In this document: positions 1-7,919 of the stretch, piece after piece | Numbering within the stretch: the first letter of the stretch is position 1 | How the letters are laid out: each line of letters begins with the position of its first letter | Origin: a virus | Taxonomy: Duplodnaviria > Heunggongvirae > Uroviricota > Caudoviricetes | IMG/VR virus record: IMGVR_UViG_2585427782_000003 | Location: 1 to 13,042 of that record | Reading direction: 5' to 3' (one strand) | Length of the DNA stretch: 13,042 nucleotides | Notes under the pieces: model-generated | What the model saw: only the letters and a program-made list of their open reading frames with translations | What the model was told of the DNA's origin: nothing | Database searches by the model: none | Position numbers and translations under genes: made by a program

Positions 1-221
1 TCCAGGTGACGTTAACCAGTTAACAATTAACGCCGGATACAGAGAATCCACCCATAACACTGTTTTTGGTTTTAACTGTTCCGCGTGCGCTCAGCCGCAT
101 TCACCGCATCACAAAATTCACTTTAAAAAGGGCGGCAGAGCAGTCACGGAGTAAAACTGATACCGCCAAACGTCACCAGAAAATTGATAACAGGGGGCGT
201 TGCAGCGGGGTTGTCACTTAA

Positions 222-237
222 GGAAGGTGCGAATAAG
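222..237. repeat. IS5 left terminal inverted repeat
   Basis: GGAAGGTGCGAATAAG read directly. Confidence 0.85.
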
Positions 238-368
238 CAGGTCATTTCTTCCCAAGCTGACTCGCTGATTAAAATTTCTCGGATCTGGGCCGATTTTTTT
301 CCCGCAAACACATCGAATCAGCCTATTTAGGCTATTTTTTCCACCATTTCTGGCGTTATTTCCGGTTT

Positions 369-1394
<1,026 letters not shown>

Positions 1395-1401
1395 TCAGGA
1401 A

Positions 1402-1417
1402 CTTGTTCGCACCTTCC
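1402..1417. repeat. IS5 right terminal inverted repeat
   Basis: CTTGTTCGCACCTTCC, reverse complement of the left IR with one mismatch. Confidence 0.85.
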
Positions 1418-1593
1418 TTAGGTATTTTAGACGTTACTAGATTAAAGAGCATTAGTTCAGATGTGAATTGACATTTTCATGGCGCAGGGTAGAGCCAGCG
1501 TGGTTGTCCGCTTTGCGTCAAAACCAGATATTACCAGATTTAGACATATATTCCCGATAGCCCTGCTCTGATGCTACACTCTGTGCTATTTTC

Positions 1594-2280
1594 ATGACCC
1601 CAATAAAAATATTTATGACTATTGCTGATTTCAAACGGCCTAAATTGGAGCTCCCAAACGGGGCAAACAAACTACTACTGCACTCTTGCTGTGCTCCATG
1701 TTCCGGTGAAGTGATGGAGGCGCTTCAGGCCTCGGGAATCGACTACACCATCTTTTTCTACAACCCGAACATTCATCCTCAGAAAGAGTATTTAATTCGT
1801 AAGGATGAAAATATTCGCTTTGCTGAACAACACGGCGTGCCGTTTATCGATGCTGATTACGACACCGACAACTGGTTTGAACGTGCCAAAGGAATGGAAT
1901 GGGAGCCTGAGAGGGGGATCCGTTGTACCATGTGTTTTGACATGCGTTTTGAGCGGACAGCGTTGTACGCTGCTGAAAATGGTTTCAGTGTGATCAGCAG
2001 TTCACTGGGCATTTCACGCTGGAAAAATATGCAGCAGGTTAACGAGTGTGGGCGGCGAGCTGTTGCGCATTATCCGGGTATGGTGTACTGGGATTATAAC
2101 TGGCGCAAGCAGGGCGGCTCGTCCCGTATGATTGAAATCAGCAAGCGCGAAAAATTCTATCAGCAGGAATATTGTGGCTGTGTGTATTCTCTGCGCGATA
2201 CCAATCTACACCGCAAATCTCAGGGACGCCCTCTTATCAAAATTGGCCAACTCCACTACGGAAAAGAAGAGAAGGAGTGA
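1594..2280 (+). CDS. queH: Epoxyqueuosine reductase QueH-like protein (DUF208 family)
   Basis: 228-aa ORF with the N-terminal [11 protein letters not shown] cysteine motif and further conserved Cys (CTMCFD, CGC) typical of QueH/DUF208; no obvious Shine-Dalgarno at the annotated ATG. Confidence 0.7.
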
Positions 2281-2517
2281 TTTTATGGATCACCTTTCTG
2301 ATTGATTTCATATTGGCGAGGTGACGTGAGTTAAGTAGAATGGCTGCGGGTGCTTGAGGCTATCTGTCTCAGGCATGAACACTGAAAGGCAGATAGAGAA
2401 AAGCCCCAGTTAACATTTCGCGTCCTGCAAGACGCTTAACATTAATCTGAGGCCCAATCTATGTCTCACAAATGTAGGTTAGCCTCTTACGTGCCGAAAG
2501 GCAAGGGGAAGCAGGCT

Positions 2518-2673
2518 ATGAAGCAGCAAAAGGCGATGTTAATCGCCCTGATCGTCATCTGTTTAACCGTCATAGTGACGGCACTGGTAACGAGGAAAGA
2601 CCTCTGCGAGGTACGACTCCGAACCGGCCAGACGGAGGTCGCTGTCTTCACAGCTTACGAACCTGAGGAGTAA
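2518..2673 (+). CDS. hok: Hok/Gef-family membrane toxin (type I toxin), HokD/RelF-like
   Basis: 51-aa product MKQQKAMLIALIVICLTVIVTALVTRKDLCEVRLRTGQTEVAVFTAYEPEE, one residue different from E. coli HokD as recalled; the six-frame ORF 2461-2673 is an in-frame upstream extension of this. Confidence 0.85.
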   Translation: MKQQKAMLIALIVICLTVIVTALVTRKDLCEVRLRTGQTEVAVFTAYEPEE

Positions 2674-2740
2674 GAGACCTGGCGGGGGAGAAATCCCTCG
2701 CCACCTCTGATGTGTCAGGCATCCTCAACGCACCCGCACT

Positions 2741-2770
2741 TAACCCGGTTCGGCGGGTTTTGTTTTTTTC
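2741..2770 (+). terminator. Intrinsic terminator downstream of hok
   Basis: Hairpin AACCCG/CGGGTT (2742-2759) followed by a T-run TTTTGTTTTTTT. Confidence 0.5.
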
Positions 2771-2840
2771 TGGCATTCTGGTTTACAATTCGCACGTCAG
2801 CCTGAACACCTGACACCTGCTGCGCCAGCAGAGAAAACAG

Positions 2841-3113
2841 ATGGCGCACAAAACCAAATTTCACAATTCTGATACCGACCTTGCCATCCGGCATGGGCGG
2901 CGTTCACACGCATTTAAAACCGACTGGTACCAACACCCACCATGTACTGAAGAACAGGCCGAATGGCTAATTCATAACTACCGCAGACGCGGATACGAGA
3001 TTAAGAAAGCCCTCAGCCTCGATTATCGTCACTGGATAATCTCCGTCAGGCTTCCTTACTCTGAACGCCCACCGCGTCCGTCCCGCACATTCCAGCAACG
3101 CATCTGGAGGTAA
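2841..3113 (+). CDS. Small nin-region phage protein of unknown function (possibly Rem-like)
   Basis: 90-aa ORF immediately upstream of the DUF968-like gene; GGAGG for the next gene overlaps its 3' end; product not recognised with certainty. Confidence 0.6.
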   Translation: MAHKTKFHNSDTDLAIRHGRRSHAFKTDWYQHPPCTEEQAEWLIHNYRRRGYEIKKALSLDYRHWIISVRLPYSERPPRPSRTFQQRIWR

Positions 3114-3114
3114 C

Positions 3115-4170
3115 GTGCGGGTATTACTTCGACCTGTTCTGGTACCGGAACTCGGGCTGGTGATCGTTAAGCCGGGCCGTGAATCCATGCCGGTATTCCA
3201 CAATACCCGGGTACTGGTGGAGCCGGAACCGAAAAGCATGCGTAATCTGCCGTCCGGGGTCGTTCCTGCCGTTCGCCAGCCGCTGGCGGAGGATAAATCA
3301 TTACTGCCATTTTTCAGCGACGAACGAGTGATTCGTGCTGCTGGTGGCGCTGGCGCATTGTCTGACTGGTTACTGCGCCATGTTAAATCCTGCCAGTGGC
3401 CACACGGCGATTATCACCACAGTGAAACCGTCATTCACCGTTATGGTACCGGCGCAATGGTGTTGTGCTGGCACTGCGACAACCAGCTGCGCGACCAGAC
3501 CTCCGAATCACTCGGGCAACTTGCTCACCAAAACCTGTTTGCATGGATGATTGACGTCATACGCCATGCAATGAATGGCTCGCAGGAACGGGAATTATCG
3601 CTGGCTGAATTATCCTGGTGGGCGGTCCGCAATCAGGTGGCGGACGCGCTACCGGAAGCGGTATTACGTCGTTCGCTGGGGTTGCGTGCGGAAAAAATCC
3701 GCTCAATGTACCGTGAAAGCGACATCGTACCGGGAGAGCAGACCGCCACCAGCATACTGAAGCAGCGCACAAAAAATCTTGCGCCGCTGCCTCACGCCCA
3801 CCAGCAAAACCCGCCACAGGAAAAGACGGTGGTCAGCATTGCCGTTGATCCGGAGTCACCGGCTCAGTATCTCCAGCGCCAGAAATCACAACGGGAAGAG
3901 ATGCCTGTATACACGCGTTGGGTAAAAACGCAGAAATGCATGACGTGTGGCAATCAGGCAGATGATCCGCATCACATCATTGGTCATGGACTGGGAGGGA
4001 TGGGAACAAAGGCTGATGATTTGTTTGTTATTCCGCTGTGCCGTAAATGCCATAGCGAACTACACGCCGGGGTAAAAGATTTTGAAGAAAAACACGGCAG
4101 CCAACTGTTGTTGCTGATTCGTTTTTTAATGCACGCGAGAAATTCGGGTGTTTTGAAGTGGAAAGCATAA
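3115..4170 (+). CDS. DUF968/YdfU-like phage protein with C-terminal Cys/His zinc-binding (HNH-like) motif
   Basis: 351-aa ORF starting at GTG 3115, 4 nt after GGAGG (3106-3110); C-terminus contains CMTCGNQADDPHHIIGH...CRKCHSELH; sits upstream of rusA and Q as in Qin-type nin regions. Confidence 0.75.
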   Translation: MRVLLRPVLVPELGLVIVKPGRESMPVFHNTRVLVEPEPKSMRNLPSGVVPAVRQPLAEDKSLLPFFSDERVIRAAGGAGALSDWLLRHVKSCQWPHGDYHHSETVIHRYGTGAMVLCWHCDNQLRDQTSESLGQLAHQNLFAWMIDVIRHAMNGSQERELSLAELSWWAVRNQVADALPEAVLRRSLGLRAEKIRSMYRESDIVPGEQTATSILKQRTKNLAPLPHAHQQNPPQEKTVVSIAVDPESPAQYLQRQKSQREEMPVYTRWVKTQKCMTCGNQADDPHHIIGHGLGGMGTKADDLFVIPLCRKCHSELHAGVKDFEEKHGSQLLLLIRFLMHARNSGVLKWKA

Positions 4171-4551
4171 ATGACTGAACGCATAGAATTTGTTTTGCCT
4201 TACCCGCCAACGGTGAACACTTACTGGCGTCGTCGTGGCAGCACATATTTTGTATCAAAAGCCGGGGAGCGTTATCGCCGGGCAGTGGCGCTTATTGTTC
4301 GCCAGCAGCGGCTGAAATTAAGCCTGTCCGGAAGGTTGGCAATAAAAATTATTGCAGAACCACCGGATAAGCGCCGCCGTGACCTGGACAATATTCTGAA
4401 AGCGCCGCTGGATGCGCTGACGCATGCGGGGTTGCTAATGGACGATGAGCAGTTTGATGAAATCAATATCGTTCGTGCTCAGCCAGTATCTGGTGGACGT
4501 CTGGGGGTGAAGATTTACCCCATAATGCTTGAAGGGCAGGTCAAAAAATGA
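4171..4551 (+). CDS. rusA: RusA-family Holliday junction resolvase
   Basis: 126-aa ORF; N-terminal LPYPPTVNTYWRRRG and central RRRDLDN motifs resemble E. coli RusA; start codon abuts the previous stop (TAAATG). Confidence 0.9.
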   Translation: MTERIEFVLPYPPTVNTYWRRRGSTYFVSKAGERYRRAVALIVRQQRLKLSLSGRLAIKIIAEPPDKRRRDLDNILKAPLDALTHAGLLMDDEQFDEINIVRAQPVSGGRLGVKIYPIMLEGQVKK

Positions 4552-5369
4552 AACTGGAAGATTTACCGAAATACTACTCCCCAAAATCCCCCGGCCTGAC
4601 TGATGCATCGGCCTCAACGTCGAAAGATGCGCTGAGTATCACTGATGTGATGGCCGCGCAGGGCATGACACAGAATCGGGCTGAGATGGGGTTTTCTGCG
4701 TTCCTTGGGAAAATGGGCATTAGTATGAATGACAGAGAGCGGGCAACAGAATTGCTGACAGAATATGCACTCAGTCGGTGTGATCGCGTGGCGGCGTTAA
4801 GAAAACTCCCGGCAGAAATAAAACCGGTAGTGATGCGCATTATGGCTTCGTACGCTTTTGAGGATTATGCCCGCAGCGCAGCGAGTAAAAAGCAGTGCCC
4901 TTGTTGCTATGGGGAAAAATTTATTGAAAGCGTAGTTTTTACAAACAAGGTCCAGTATCCGGATGGTAAGCCGCCGGTATGGGCAAAGTGTACGAAAGGT
5001 GTGTATCCGTCTTACTGGGAAGAATGGAAAAAAGTCAGGGAGGTGGTAAAAGTTGCCTGTCCGGAGTGTGGCGGAAAGGGTGAGGTTTCCACCGCCTGTA
5101 AGGATTGCCGTGGGCGTGGTGTCGCCATTCATCGTGAAGAGTCGGTAAAACGTGGTATGCCTGTTATCAGAGACTGCCAGCGTTGTGGTGGTCGTGGCTG
5201 TGAAAGGCTACCATCAACGGAGGCATTTAATGCCATATGCAAAGTGACGAGTGCTATCACGCTTGATACGTGGAAAAAATCAGTGAAACGCTTTTACGAT
5301 ACGTTGGTGGTTCGGTTTGACATTGAAGAGGCATGGGCGGAGCGGCAGTTAAAGAGGGTAACGCGATAG
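4548..5369 (+). CDS. Late-gene antiterminator Q-like protein with DnaJ-type zinc-finger repeats
   Basis: 273-aa ORF overlapping the rusA stop (ATGA); carries CPECGGKG, CKDCRGRG and CQRCGGRG (CxxCxGxG) repeats plus CPCCYGEK; lies immediately upstream of a lambda PR'-like promoter, which is the main basis for the Q assignment. Confidence 0.7.
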   Translation: MKLEDLPKYYSPKSPGLTDASASTSKDALSITDVMAAQGMTQNRAEMGFSAFLGKMGISMNDRERATELLTEYALSRCDRVAALRKLPAEIKPVVMRIMASYAFEDYARSAASKKQCPCCYGEKFIESVVFTNKVQYPDGKPPVWAKCTKGVYPSYWEEWKKVREVVKVACPECGGKGEVSTACKDCRGRGVAIHREESVKRGMPVIRDCQRCGGRGCERLPSTEAFNAICKVTSAITLDTWKKSVKRFYDTLVVRFDIEEAWAERQLKRVTR

Positions 5370-5374
5370 TGTTG

Positions 5375-5430
5375 TTGATTTTTCCCGAATCTGTGGTAAA
5401 TTTGCTCTAACGATGGGCGTTTTATGCCTG
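5375..5430 (+). promoter_or_regulatory. PR'-like late promoter with putative qut site
   Basis: TTGATT (5375-5380), 16-nt spacer, TAAATT (5397-5402), then TTGCTCTAACGATGGG, which closely resembles the lambda PR' -10/initial transcribed region as recalled (GGGTAAATTTGACTCAACGATGGG). Confidence 0.55.
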
Positions 5431-5451
5431 ACGTTAGAAGATTTTTTACAC

Positions 5452-5473
5452 CCCGCCGCCTGGCGGGTTTTTT
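5452..5473 (+). terminator. tR'-like intrinsic terminator
   Basis: Hairpin CCCGCC-GCCT-GGCGGG (5452-5467) followed by TTTTTT (5468-5473), about 50-65 nt downstream of the putative PR' start. Confidence 0.6.
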
Positions 5474-5595
5474 ATGACTGAAATCGCGTCAGTACAGTAA
5501 ACGCGCTGGTGGCGGTGAATACCTGTCTTTCAGCTTGCTGGCTTTTTCGACAAGAGTTATTGGTGTGTCACGTTAACCGGAAAAGGGAAAAAGAC

Positions 5596-5793
5596 ATGCT
5601 AAAACAGCAGGATATGACAGAAACCGCCAGAGTAGTGTTTAATGAATTAAGCGTTACCGAACCGGCGACAGTCGGGGAGATTGCACAGAATACTTACCTT
5701 TCACGCGAACGCTGCCAGTTAATACTGACCCAGCTGGTTATGGCGGGTCTGGCAGACTATCAGTTCGGTTGTTACAGACGCCTTCCGCAGTGA
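5596..5793 (+). CDS. Small hypothetical protein, possible winged-helix/HTH DNA-binding protein
   Basis: 65-aa ORF from ATG 5596 with AGGGA 7 nt upstream (six-frame ORF 5509-5793 is the longer in-frame version); helix-turn-helix-like stretch TVGEIAQNTYLSRERCQLILTQL; terminator overlaps its stop. Confidence 0.5.
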   Translation: MLKQQDMTETARVVFNELSVTEPATVGEIAQNTYLSRERCQLILTQLVMAGLADYQFGCYRRLPQ

Positions 5794-5807
5794 AGGCTTT
5801 TTTATTT
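5780..5807 (+). terminator. Intrinsic terminator
   Basis: Hairpin GCCTTC-CGCAGT-GAAGGC (5780-5797) followed by TTTTTTATTT. Confidence 0.55.
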
Positions 5808-5943
5808 GTGGTAAATGGGCGGCTGGTGGGTGTTAGGGGCACCCACCAGCCATCTGCTCATGCGTTGGGTTCACAAGCAAACCTCAGGCCCACTGCTTTG
5901 CGCAAAAGCAGAATGAGCCTATCAGAGACAGGCTTAATGATCC

Positions 5944-6993
5944 ATGCTTAATACTGTAAAAATATCCAGTTGTGAGTTAATCAACGCCGACTGCCTGGAA
6001 TTTATCCGGTCGTTACCCGAAAATTCTGTTGACCTGATAGTTACGGACCCGCCGTACTTTAAAGTGAAGCCTGAGGGCTGGGATAACCAGTGGAAGGGCG
6101 ACGATGATTACCTGAAGTGGCTGGACCAGTGTCTGGCGCAGTTCTGGCGGGTGCTGAAACCTGCCGGAAGTCTTTACCTGTTCTGTGGTCATCGCCGGGC
6201 ATCTGATATCGAAATCATGATGCGTGAACGCTTCAGTGTGCTGAACCATATTATCTGGGCGAAGCCGTCCGGACGCTGGAACGGATGCAACAAGGAAAGC
6301 CTGCGGGCGTATTTCCCCGCCACAGAGCGCATTCTGTTCGCGGAACATTATCAGGGGCCGTATCGTCCGAAAGATGCCGGGTATGCGGCGAAGGGCAGTG
6401 CACTGAAACAGCATGTGATGGCCCCGCTGATTTCTTACTTTCGTGATGCGCGCGCGGCCCTGGGGATAACGGCAAAACAGATTGCAGATGCCACAGGAAA
6501 GAAAAACATGGTGTCGCACTGGTTCAGTGCCAGTCAGTGGCAGCTACCGAACGAAAGCGATTATCTGAAATTACAGTCGCTGTTTGCCCGGGTGGCAGAA
6601 GAGAAACATCAGCGCGGTGAACTGGAAAAGCCCCACCACCAGCTGGTGGATACGTATACGTCACTGAACCGGCAGTATGTGGAGCTGCAGAGTGAATATA
6701 AGCATCTGCGGCGGTATTTTGGTGTGACGGCGCAGGTGCCGTACACGGATGTGTGGACACATAAACCGGTGCAGTTCTATCCCGGGAAACATCCGTGCGA
6801 AAAACCGGCAGAAATGCTGCAGCAGATAATCAGCGCAAGCAGTCGTCCGGGTGACCTGGTTGCAGATTTTTTTATGGGCTCAGGTTCAACGGTAAAAGCT
6901 GCACTGGCGCTCGGGCGTCGTGCGATTGGCGTTGAACTGGAGACCGGACGTTTTGAGCAGACAGTCAGGGAAGTTCAGGATTTAATCGTTTGA
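5944..6993 (+). CDS. Orphan DNA amino-methyltransferase, beta class (probably N6-adenine)
   Basis: 349-aa ORF with catalytic motif IV DPPY near the N-terminus (IVTDPPYF) and SAM-binding motif I FFMGSGST near the C-terminus, the beta-class order; no restriction endonuclease gene adjacent. Confidence 0.85.
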   Translation: MLNTVKISSCELINADCLEFIRSLPENSVDLIVTDPPYFKVKPEGWDNQWKGDDDYLKWLDQCLAQFWRVLKPAGSLYLFCGHRRASDIEIMMRERFSVLNHIIWAKPSGRWNGCNKESLRAYFPATERILFAEHYQGPYRPKDAGYAAKGSALKQHVMAPLISYFRDARAALGITAKQIADATGKKNMVSHWFSASQWQLPNESDYLKLQSLFARVAEEKHQRGELEKPHHQLVDTYTSLNRQYVELQSEYKHLRRYFGVTAQVPYTDVWTHKPVQFYPGKHPCEKPAEMLQQIISASSRPGDLVADFFMGSGSTVKAALALGRRAIGVELETGRFEQTVREVQDLIV

Positions 6994-7042
6994 AACGGAT
7001 GAGATTGCAGAATTAATTACGCACCGTTATTATGCGGCTCCC

Positions 7043-7118
7043 GGCCCTTTAGCTCAGTGGTGAGAGCGAGCGACTCATAATCGCCAGGTCGCTGGTTCAA
7101 ATCCAGCAAGGGCCACCA
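7043..7118 (+). tRNA. ileZ: tRNA-Ile2 (anticodon CAU, lysidine type; reads AUA)
   Basis: 76-nt cloverleaf: acceptor GGCCCTT/AAGGGCC, D-arm GCTCAGTGGTGAGAGC, anticodon loop CTCATAA, T-arm GGTTCAAATCC, 3' CCA; close to E. coli ileX as recalled. Confidence 0.9.
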
Positions 7119-7125
7119 TCACATA

Positions 7126-7202
7126 CCGCCATTAGCTCATCAGGATAGAGCGCCAGCCTTCGAAGCTGGTTGCGCGGGGTTCGAGTCCTCGATGGCGGTC
7201 CA
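7126..7202 (+). tRNA. argN: tRNA-Arg (anticodon UCG; reads CGA/CGG)
   Basis: 77-nt cloverleaf: acceptor CCGCCAT/ATGGCGG, anticodon stem CCAGC/GCTGG with loop CTTCGAA, T-loop TTCGAGT, 3' CCA. Confidence 0.8.
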
Positions 7203-7215
7203 TTATCTGTACCCT

Positions 7216-7292
7216 GCGTTGTTAGCTCAGCCGGACAGAGCAATTGCCTTCTAAGCAATCGGTCACTGGTTCGAATCCAGTACAACGCGCCA
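7216..7292 (+). tRNA. argO: tRNA-Arg (anticodon UCU; reads AGA/AGG)
   Basis: 77-nt cloverleaf: acceptor GCGTTGT/ACAACGC, anticodon stem ATTGC/GCAAT with loop CTTCTAA, T-arm ACTGG-TTCGAAT-CCAGT, 3' CCA. Confidence 0.85.
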
Positions 7293-7306
7293 CACTTATT
7301 TTCCCT

Positions 7307-7332
7307 GGCTCGCTTTTGCGGGCCTTTTTTTT
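7307..7332 (+). terminator. Intrinsic terminator after the tRNA cluster
   Basis: Hairpin GGCTCGC-TTTT-GCGGGCC followed by TTTTTTTT. Confidence 0.6.
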
Positions 7333-7528
7333 AAATGTCTCACAATTCAGACGGTTGACTGTTGTCTGGTTGGCGGGGAGTTTGTTAAAAGAAACTGGCA
7401 TGGTGAATCCCCCTGTGCGGAGGGGCAATCAGCGAGTAGGTATATGGGATAATCGCGGATTCAGGTGCTGGTACTGAATTCACCGGGAGGCACCCGGCAC
7501 CATGCAATGGCACATAGCGCCACTCTCC

Positions 7529-7560
7529 AGCCCCTCTCCGGAGGGGCTGTTTATATTGAT
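7529..7560 (+). terminator. Terminator-like hairpin
   Basis: Perfect 8-bp stem AGCCCCTC/GAGGGGCT with loop TCCG, followed by a T-rich tract GTTTATATTGATTTT. Confidence 0.4.
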
Positions 7561-7583
7561 TTTGTCAGATGTGAGTAAACTGC

Positions 7584-7919
7584 TTATGGACTTTGTTGTT
7601 TTAGCCCATAAGGACATATTTGCAGAGTGCAACGGTTATTAAAGCATTCATTCAATACGTTATCTGTATTTGTAGGGCATTCCTGGCTGTTTTTGATTAA
7701 ATTCCAGAATGTTTTATTGAATGGTACTACGTTGTAAATGGTTACAGGTAGCACTTTGTTATTGAGCATGATGCCTGTGTGAGTCAGTGTAAATATACTT
7801 TCAGGAGGTAAGAAAGCATCCGATTGATACCAGATTATTAATTTTATTTTACTCCATATGACTGAAAAAGATATTCCGCATGATGGCTGGATAACTGTAT
7901 CAATCACAATCCACTTCAT
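7584..7919 (-). CDS. Hypothetical protein in the AT-rich cargo slot
   Basis: 111-aa ORF opposite to late transcription; AGGA 6 nt upstream of its ATG (minus strand reads AAGGAAACTAAATG); open frame of 111 codons is unlikely by chance in AT-rich DNA (rough estimate, not computed rigorously); product not recognised. Confidence 0.3.

Follow-up and report, generated by a model that had tools for sequence, protein, structure and literature searches.

Why should a prophage carry a gene for the last step of queuosine synthesis when its host already has an enzyme for that step? The question is raised by queH, a plus-strand open reading frame (ORF) at 1594/1615-2280 of a stretch of viral DNA of 13,042 nucleotides (IMG/VR record IMGVR_UViG_2585427782_000003, positions 1 to 13,042; here, "the window"), which derives from a lambdoid (lambda-like) prophage of Escherichia coli. 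An earlier note on this DNA had taken the gene to be queH-like, had pointed to rare-codon tRNA genes in the same element, and had proposed that the two together let the prophage adjust host decoding. We favor a different explanation, to which we assign a probability of roughly 0.6: the prophage holds a captured, working queH that would serve as a backup, independent of vitamin B12 (cobalamin), for the host enzyme QueG, with activity and benefit both predicted from sequence. Two points that the earlier note did not consider, the presence of QueG in every E. coli and the cobalamin requirement of QueG, likely shape the function of the gene. The enzyme family, its reaction, and its RefSeq name are already known; the phage context is the little-noticed part.

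Membership of the ORF in the QueH family is secure. The Pfam profile PF02677 (QueH, also DUF208) matched with E=1.1e-65 (221.5 bits; cut-off, 23.5) over profile positions 1-174 of 175, and a phmmer comparison with the solved Thermotoga maritima QueH (PDB 7lc5) gave E=8e-22 with the CC, CxxC, and CxC cysteines aligned. A search of 1.84 billion cluster representatives returned 4775 relatives at E<=0.001, from which we built an alignment of 35 sequences comprising the window protein, 33 representatives, and T. maritima QueH. The window protein keeps all 14 invariant columns of this alignment (C25, C26, N52, Y59, R62, E99, R103, C104, C107, K137, Q184, C187, G188, and C189 in the numbering of the 221-residue form), and the cysteine motifs CCxPC, RCxxC, and YCGC, putative ligands of the metal centers, are all retained. 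The two checks that had been named for the QueH assignment, support from the DUF208 profile and retention of the cysteine ligands on alignment, thus both come out in its favor. The near-invariant C29 is kept as well; T. maritima QueH is atypical in having Asp13 (mutated in PDB 9dco), where the prophage protein and at least 90% of the aligned family members have cysteine.

Structure prediction agrees with this assignment. An AlphaFold2 model of the window protein (mean predicted local distance difference test score, pLDDT, 78.9; predicted template modeling score, pTM, 0.81) had as its five best PDB matches the five T. maritima QueH entries (TMt, 0.79-0.85; root mean square deviation, rmsd, 2.6-3.4 Å), the fit to 7lc5 and 7lc7 being TMt 0.84 with an rmsd of 2.6 Å. 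The next matches were other adenine-nucleotide alpha-hydrolase-like folds at E ~5e-5. We conclude that the prophage ORF is an intact, full-length queH whose product is predicted to be enzymatically active in E. coli.

Where translation begins bears on how the gene has been catalogued. The first ATG, at 1594, opens an ORF of 228 amino acids that ends with the stop codon at 2280, and the annotators of Escherichia phage HannyBb chose this longer form; RefSeq, through the Prokaryotic Genome Annotation Pipeline (PGAP), starts at the ATG at 1615 and gives a protein of 221 amino acids, WP_000150294.1, named "epoxyqueuosine reductase QueH." Both candidate starts lie within the DNA homology to the nearest chromosomal relative, a Scandinavium sp. 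gene (84% nucleotide identity), which begins at ~1565. A further ATG at 1714 (Met34 of the 221-residue protein) is preceded by GGTGA, which resembles a Shine-Dalgarno sequence. We rejected this internal methionine as the true start: a protein begun there would have lost the invariant CCAPC, and chromosomal homologues conserve the N-terminal region. The corresponding PHROGs family, phrog_3217 ("unknown function"), has a profile whose first position is residue 34. This suggests that the internal methionine has been taken as the start in many phage annotations, with loss of CCAPC, and such truncation may be the reason that the family stayed unnamed in phage databases. No model of NCBIfam release 20 matched the protein at E<=0.01, so the PGAP name must stem from a rule of another type.

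Where did the gene come from? The phage queH is a captured cellular gene, because its chromosomal relatives sit in ordinary neighborhoods that are not phage derived. QueH of Scandinavium, Kluyvera, and Enterobacter shares 88-92% of its residues with the prophage protein, and QueH of Erwinia, Providencia, Proteus, Photorhabdus, Serratia, Pseudomonas, Stenotrophomonas, and Sphingomonas shares 75-86%. Six lambdoid marker proteins, DUF977 and HokD among them, were absent within 5 kb of queH in 79 of 80 species-representative loci, the sole locus with such a marker being that of Escherichia albertii. The gene lies between tmcA and purC in Providencia, between purL and glrK/glrR/glnB/hmp/glyA in Erwinia, and amid ordinary metabolic and regulatory, non-phage genes in Enterobacter and Scandinavium.

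The captured segment is compact. DNA homology to the nearest chromosomal queH is limited to 1565-2284 of the window, and homology breakpoints between the O104:H4 prophage and that of strain MLI121 (locus L003, 20114/20866, converted to window positions) delimit a single-gene plus-strand cassette at ~1532-2282, with margins of ~83 bp ahead of the 1615 start codon and 2 bp past the stop codon. The surrounding DNA recurs in other strains: window positions 1400-2700 are 100% identical to three complete genomes, including strain DLI.5a, whose prophage adjoins potC, and positions 1418-2800 are 100% identical to the prophage at ompW of the O104:H4 outbreak lineage. On the right, the cassette is bordered by the mok/hokD type I toxin gene (2461-2673, plus strand; PF01848, E=1.6e-22, and hokD annotation), which is conserved, and on the left by the DUF977 gene of the replication module.

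The junction between DUF977 and hokD is a slot for cargo exchange, which queH occupies as one alternative, single-gene load. In MLI121, a sibling prophage carries genes for NUDIX and HAD hydrolases there in place of queH (locus L012, 2364-3670); isolate F200 has a complete Kiwa system between queH and hokD (locus L005, 9896-11535; KwaA, E=1e-101; KwaB, E=3e-159); and a methyltransferase fragment precedes queH in REL606 and HannyBb. queH is thus a discrete insert at a conserved position where sibling phages carry other cargo, one mark of a lambdoid moron or accessory cassette. The slot falls in the early-right, nin-type region, upstream of the antiterminator gene Q, and the tRNA genes lie downstream of Q.

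Such slots often gather defense and counter-defense cargo, and the Kiwa and NUDIX-HAD loads invite the thought that QueH serves phage-host or bacterium-bacterium conflict, for example by altering the sensitivity of tRNAs with GUN anticodons to anticodon nucleases or by affecting a defense system based on 7-deazaguanine. Proteins of the QueC family do occur in known defense systems (PMC13639016). The PADLOC scan gave no match for the QueH protein, however, which is 75-92% identical to housekeeping QueH and has no extra domain; the idea draws on genomic neighborhood alone, and we found no link between epoxyqueuosine (oQ) or queuosine (Q) and any nuclease. We regard a role in conflict as improbable.

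Once inside phage genomes, queH has been maintained by selection. We compared four alleles, those of the window and O104:H4, F200, REL606, and HannyBb. Synonymous divergence (dS) reached 0.29, nonsynonymous divergence (dN) was at most 0.016, and dN/dS was 0.05-0.09. The phage DNA that flanks these alleles is 90-94% identical, a divergence similar to that of the alleles themselves; therefore, the alleles diverged inside phage genomes and under purifying selection there. We considered and rejected independent captures from different donors, since the alleles have the same cassette boundaries and their flanks show similar divergence, and we rejected a decaying remnant on the dN/dS values. queH is also intact in degraded prophages with many pseudogene neighbors, namely, those of DLI.5a and the cryptic Qin prophage of REL606, which argues against both a decaying remnant and pure neutrality.

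The gene is common. A DNA search with queH alone gave matches in 995 of the 5426 complete E. coli genomes (~18%), 985 of which hold at least 80% of the gene and 707 of which have a copy at least 99% identical to the window allele. Copies are almost always single and chromosomal, and all 40 evenly sampled carrier records bear the label "epoxyqueuosine reductase QueH." Carriers include O104:H4, O157:H7, sequence type 131 (ST131), and avian pathogenic E. coli (APEC) O18 strains, as well as E. coli B REL606, the ancestor used in the evolution experiment. A relative is encoded on 189 viral contigs of IMG/VR, and the best 80 of these, on which our comparisons of viral loci are based, encode an identical QueH protein. 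Deposited phage genomes present another picture: among 50,697 records, only HannyBb carries this queH at the DNA level, annotated "hypothetical protein," and a search at the protein level added 24 phage records with 32-78% identity, most of them unannotated "Bacteriophage sp." contigs from human feces. We found no paper on a phage-borne QueH in the searchable literature.

What might a second enzyme offer these hosts? queG was present in 5426 of 5426 complete E. coli genomes, hence in every queH carrier, so the prophage QueH in every case adds another route to a step for which the host has QueG. E. coli is unable to make cobalamin de novo, and because its QueG needs cobalamin, the prophage QueH likely frees the completion of Q from B12. 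Frey et al. reportedly observed in 1988 that conversion of oQ to Q in the tRNA of E. coli and Salmonella depends on B12. QueG is a cobalamin/[4Fe-4S] enzyme (PMC5175355, PMC4646009) and one of four cobamide-dependent enzymes of E. coli (PMC11841063), and QueH has been described as the cobamide-independent alternative to it (PMC6461909). Staphylococcus aureus is reported to keep both QueG and QueH, with different expression patterns that have been ascribed to cofactor availability (PMC13443448).

The explanation that we favor can be put as a short series of steps. A lambdoid phage would have acquired a chromosomal queH as a tight single-gene cassette in the slot between DUF977 and hokD. Its product, an iron-sulfur enzyme, would reduce oQ to Q at position 34 of the host tRNA-Asp, tRNA-Asn, tRNA-His, and tRNA-Tyr, and bacteria that carry the prophage, or cells in which phage early genes are on, could finish Q synthesis without B12 from outside. 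The tRNA genes ileZ-argN-argO of the same element form an independent module that supplies rare-codon tRNAs. The time at which queH would be expressed and B12 independence as the selected benefit are the presumptive parts of this account.

Several points weigh against a B12-independent backup. Deletion of queG brought no change in growth in one assay (PMC11841063), and Q may offer very little advantage over oQ. The B12 argument itself is built on citing papers and general background. The gene is dispensable in the laboratory, BL21(DE3) having lost it through a clean deletion of 1,361 bp relative to REL606 (positions 8604-9964 of REL606 locus L004 against ~1549-1550 of L173, with flanks 100% identical on both sides) that removes queH entirely, along with the methyltransferase fragment and the end of DUF977. 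No sigma-70-like promoter turned up in a consensus scan of the stretch from DUF977 to queH, whether or not it contained the insertion sequence (IS) that lies there in the window, and no clear Shine-Dalgarno sequence was found upstream of the 1594 or the 1615 start. It is thus possible that lysogens do not express queH and that the gene comes on only with induction, in which case a model of benefit to the host would lose force.

Consensus scans overlook weak or nonconsensus promoters, and the same scan detected no terminator around queH, the only promoter-like site seen being that of hok. Cotranscription with the early-right operon after induction is the simplest expectation, and the intact queH of defective prophages hints at some expression in lysogens. 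The window's strain may be a special case. An IS5-family (ISKpn26-like) element, whose transposase gene (369-1349, minus strand; Pfam DDE_Tnp_1 and DUF772, RefSeq annotation) lies outside the queH cassette, ends at ~1418, ~175-195 bp upstream of queH and inside the 3' end of DUF977. This copy truncates DUF977, which RefSeq marks as a pseudogene, and separates queH from the early-right operon; the O104:H4 copy of the region has no IS. IS5 insertions are known to change the expression of adjoining genes, and regulation of queH in the window's strain may differ from that in IS-free carriers.

Much of this would suit an account in which queH is a selectively neutral passenger, redundant with QueG and kept because the prophage backbone is common. 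The universality of queG, the lack of a growth effect of its deletion in one study (PMC11841063), the failure to detect a promoter for queH, and the clean loss in BL21(DE3) with no known consequence all favor it, and the 707 of 995 copies with 99% or more identity to the window allele fit recent spread. Neutrality is difficult to reconcile, however, with a dN/dS of 0.05-0.09 between alleles that diverged jointly with their phage flanks, with intact copies in degraded prophages, with the full length of almost all copies, and with a location in a slot whose contents are readily exchanged. We consider a neutral passenger unlikely, although less so than a role in conflict.

The relation of queH to the tRNA genes was central to the earlier proposal. 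The three genes are real and form an ileZ-argN-argO cluster at 7043-7292 on the plus strand: a tRNA with anticodon CAT (7043-7118, plus strand), called Met by ARAGORN and Ile/ileZ by RefSeq and phage records, that is, Ile2 (CAU), which reads AUA after lysidine modification; tRNA-Arg(TCG) (UCG; 7126-7202, plus strand); and tRNA-Arg(TCT) (UCU; 7216-7292, plus strand), both Arg genes being called by ARAGORN and RefSeq. Their identity to the closest phage copies of the cluster is 97-99%. In the count of rare codons that had been suggested, AUA, AGA, AGG, CGA, and CGG together amount to 29-40 per 1000 codons in prophage genes and 14 per 1000 in flanking host genes, so that the codons read by these tRNAs are 2-3 times commoner in the prophage. 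The rare-codon rationale for the phage tRNAs themselves holds.

Does this make queH and the cluster one co-selected package that tunes translation and reprograms host decoding? Both concern tRNA function, the prophage genes are enriched 2- to 3-fold in AUA, AGR, CGA, and CGG codons, and queH and the cluster share a prophage in the window, O104:H4, and several sampled genomes. The substrates, however, are disjoint. QueH acts on tRNAs with GUN anticodons, and no such tRNA (Asp, Asn, His, or Tyr) occurs in the window or in the 80 viral loci with identical QueH, where queH is accompanied instead by tRNA genes for Met/Ile(CAT), Arg, Thr, Gly, Lys, Ala, Glu, and Ile(GAT). Nor does the usage of Q-decoded codons set the prophage genes apart: the NAU share of these codons is 0.52-0.58 in prophage genes and not above the 0.63 of flanking host genes.

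The two features also assort independently. No tRNA gene lies in the fetched stretches of the queH-bearing Qin of REL606 and of F200 or in 32 kb of HannyBb. Conversely, the cluster is present in 289 phage records, mostly of Shiga toxin (Stx)-converting phages, and none of the 289 carries this queH at the DNA level; the sole phage record with this gene, HannyBb, is one without tRNAs. The cluster lies within 6 kb of queH in 30 of the 53 viral loci with identical QueH and enough downstream sequence, and the Q and methylase modules between the two, like the tRNA module itself, vary even among loci that encode the identical protein. Ten of the 80 IMG/VR loci (L013-L092) have a set of Met-CAT, Thr-TGT, Gly-TCC, and Lys-TTT tRNAs instead of ileZ-argN-argO; the different sets at queH loci indicate that the tRNA cargo downstream of Q is itself exchangeable. 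Among 60 evenly spaced E. coli records that match the 5.7-kb stretch from queH to the tRNAs, the match reached the tRNA cluster in ~6 of 9 queH-positive and ~22 of 51 queH-negative records, a rough count based on best matches only, and there was no clear association. queH belongs to one module of a mosaic genome and the tRNA cluster to another, and a joint program is unsupported. Of the proposal that the prophage adjusts host decoding, what stands is that each feature is related to translation; the joint package, given disjoint substrates and independent assortment, is unlikely.

The earlier note had also raised, as the less likely alternative, an origin of queH in DNA modification, and this ranking was justified. 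Phages modify their DNA with FolE, QueC/D/E, and DpdA (PMC6884629), enzymes of or related to the queuosine pathway, and QueH might be part or a leftover of such a pathway for placing 7-deazaguanine bases in DNA. The observation that the window has neither tgt nor dpdA was correct: its ORFs of at least 250 amino acids encode only the IS5 transposase, DUF968, Q, the DNA methylase, and the SASA esterase, and all are thus assigned to other families. We extended the comparison to the two annotated prophages and HannyBb, and none of tgt, dpdA, queC, queD, queE, and folE is listed in the DLI.5a or O104:H4 prophage region or in HannyBb, which leaves the preQ0 genes missing as well. A survey of viral 7-deazaguanine genes in 2019 found no QueA, QueG, or QueH homologues in the viruses analyzed, including those that modify DNA, and no deoxy-queuosine in the DNAs tested (PMC6884629). 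Furthermore, QueH acts after QueA and needs oQ made on tRNA, and the strong purifying selection and low dN/dS speak against a remnant. A DNA-modification role is very unlikely, the least probable of the alternatives weighed here.

The order of genes in the rest of the window was read from the ORF listing and Pfam and NCBIfam scans. A small ORF follows hokD and precedes a DUF968/HNH gene (3115-4170), a RusA gene (4171-4551), and the antiterminator gene Q (4548-5369). An orphan N6/N4 DNA methyltransferase gene (5944-6993, plus strand; PADLOC MTase_II, E=4e-166) lies directly upstream of the tRNA cluster; it is whole in the window and split by an IS4-family (IS421) insertion in DLI.5a, which means that the window does not derive from DLI.5a. 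Between the tRNA cluster and the esterase gene, in an island of low GC content (0.37), is a gene for an IraM-like anti-adapter (7584-7919, minus strand; NCBIfam PRK09919, E=5e-48). The esterase gene (8165-10036, plus strand) encodes 623 amino acids with DUF1737, SASA, and DUF6645 domains and resembles the nanS-p 9-O-acetyl-sialic-acid esterases of Stx phages; its ORF is full length in the window, and RefSeq marks the DLI.5a copy as truncated. A lysozyme-sized ORF (10802-11335) marks the lysis region, where the matching O104:H4 prophage is annotated with holin, lysozyme, and lysis protein genes.

If queH is a B12-independent backup, ~18% of complete E. coli genomes encode an additional queuosine route that does not need B12, and strains may differ in tRNA modification in B12-free media. 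REL606 (with queH) and BL21(DE3) (without it) form a ready-made, nearly isogenic natural pair that bears on Q versus oQ in B12-free medium. The Qin prophage of K-12 MG1655 matches only from the hokD region on, with no queH among the matches listed. The phage queH also qualifies the published statement that viruses are without QueA, QueG, and QueH, the enzymes specific to queuosine in tRNA (PMC6884629). A bolder and rather doubtful extension is that prophage QueH is a mobile B12-independence trait of about one in five E. coli strains, in which the Q/oQ state affects fitness or conflict; were this true, QueH would be the first enzyme of the tRNA branch of the queuosine pathway known from a phage (cf. 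PMC6884629), and gut colonization under competition for corrinoids, translation of NAU/NAC-rich phage or virulence genes after induction, and sensitivity to anticodon nucleases would be examples of where it acts.

Set beside known systems, the prophage protein is an ordinary QueH in a little-noticed place. It shares with the QueH/DUF208 family (PF02677; T. maritima PDB 7lc5, 7lc7, and 9deu) a full-length profile match, the fold, the CC...RCxxC...YCGC pattern, and the residues N52, Y59, R62, E99, R103, K137, and Q184; unlike the usual QueH, it is encoded by a single-gene cassette in a lambdoid prophage rather than at a chromosomal locus, and its host already has QueG. The tRNA module has its counterpart in Stx phages, whose cluster (named in AP012540, Stx2a_WGPS8) comprises the same three tRNA genes and lies downstream of the Q gene in what we take to be the same place. 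No stx genes follow the cluster in the window, unlike in those phages, and the iraM-like gene, whose position presumably corresponds to that of stx in Stx-converting phages, and the nanS-p-like esterase gene are found instead.

QueG carries out the reaction predicted for the prophage QueH, oQ34 to Q34 on tRNA-Asp, -Asn, -His, and -Tyr, yet belongs to an unrelated protein family and uses B12 as its cofactor (PMC5175355, PMC4646009, PMC6461909). Systems for 7-deazaguanine modification of DNA, like prophage queH, borrow enzymes of the queuosine pathway (PMC6884629), but they use the early, preQ0-forming steps and a DNA transglycosylase, and none of those genes was found with queH in the window, the two annotated prophages, or HannyBb. 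A parallel is S. aureus, in which, as in queH-carrying E. coli, one cell holds two redundant enzymes with different cofactors (PMC13443448); in S. aureus both genes are chromosomal, whereas in E. coli the second enzyme is borne by a mobile prophage and is found in ~18% of strains.

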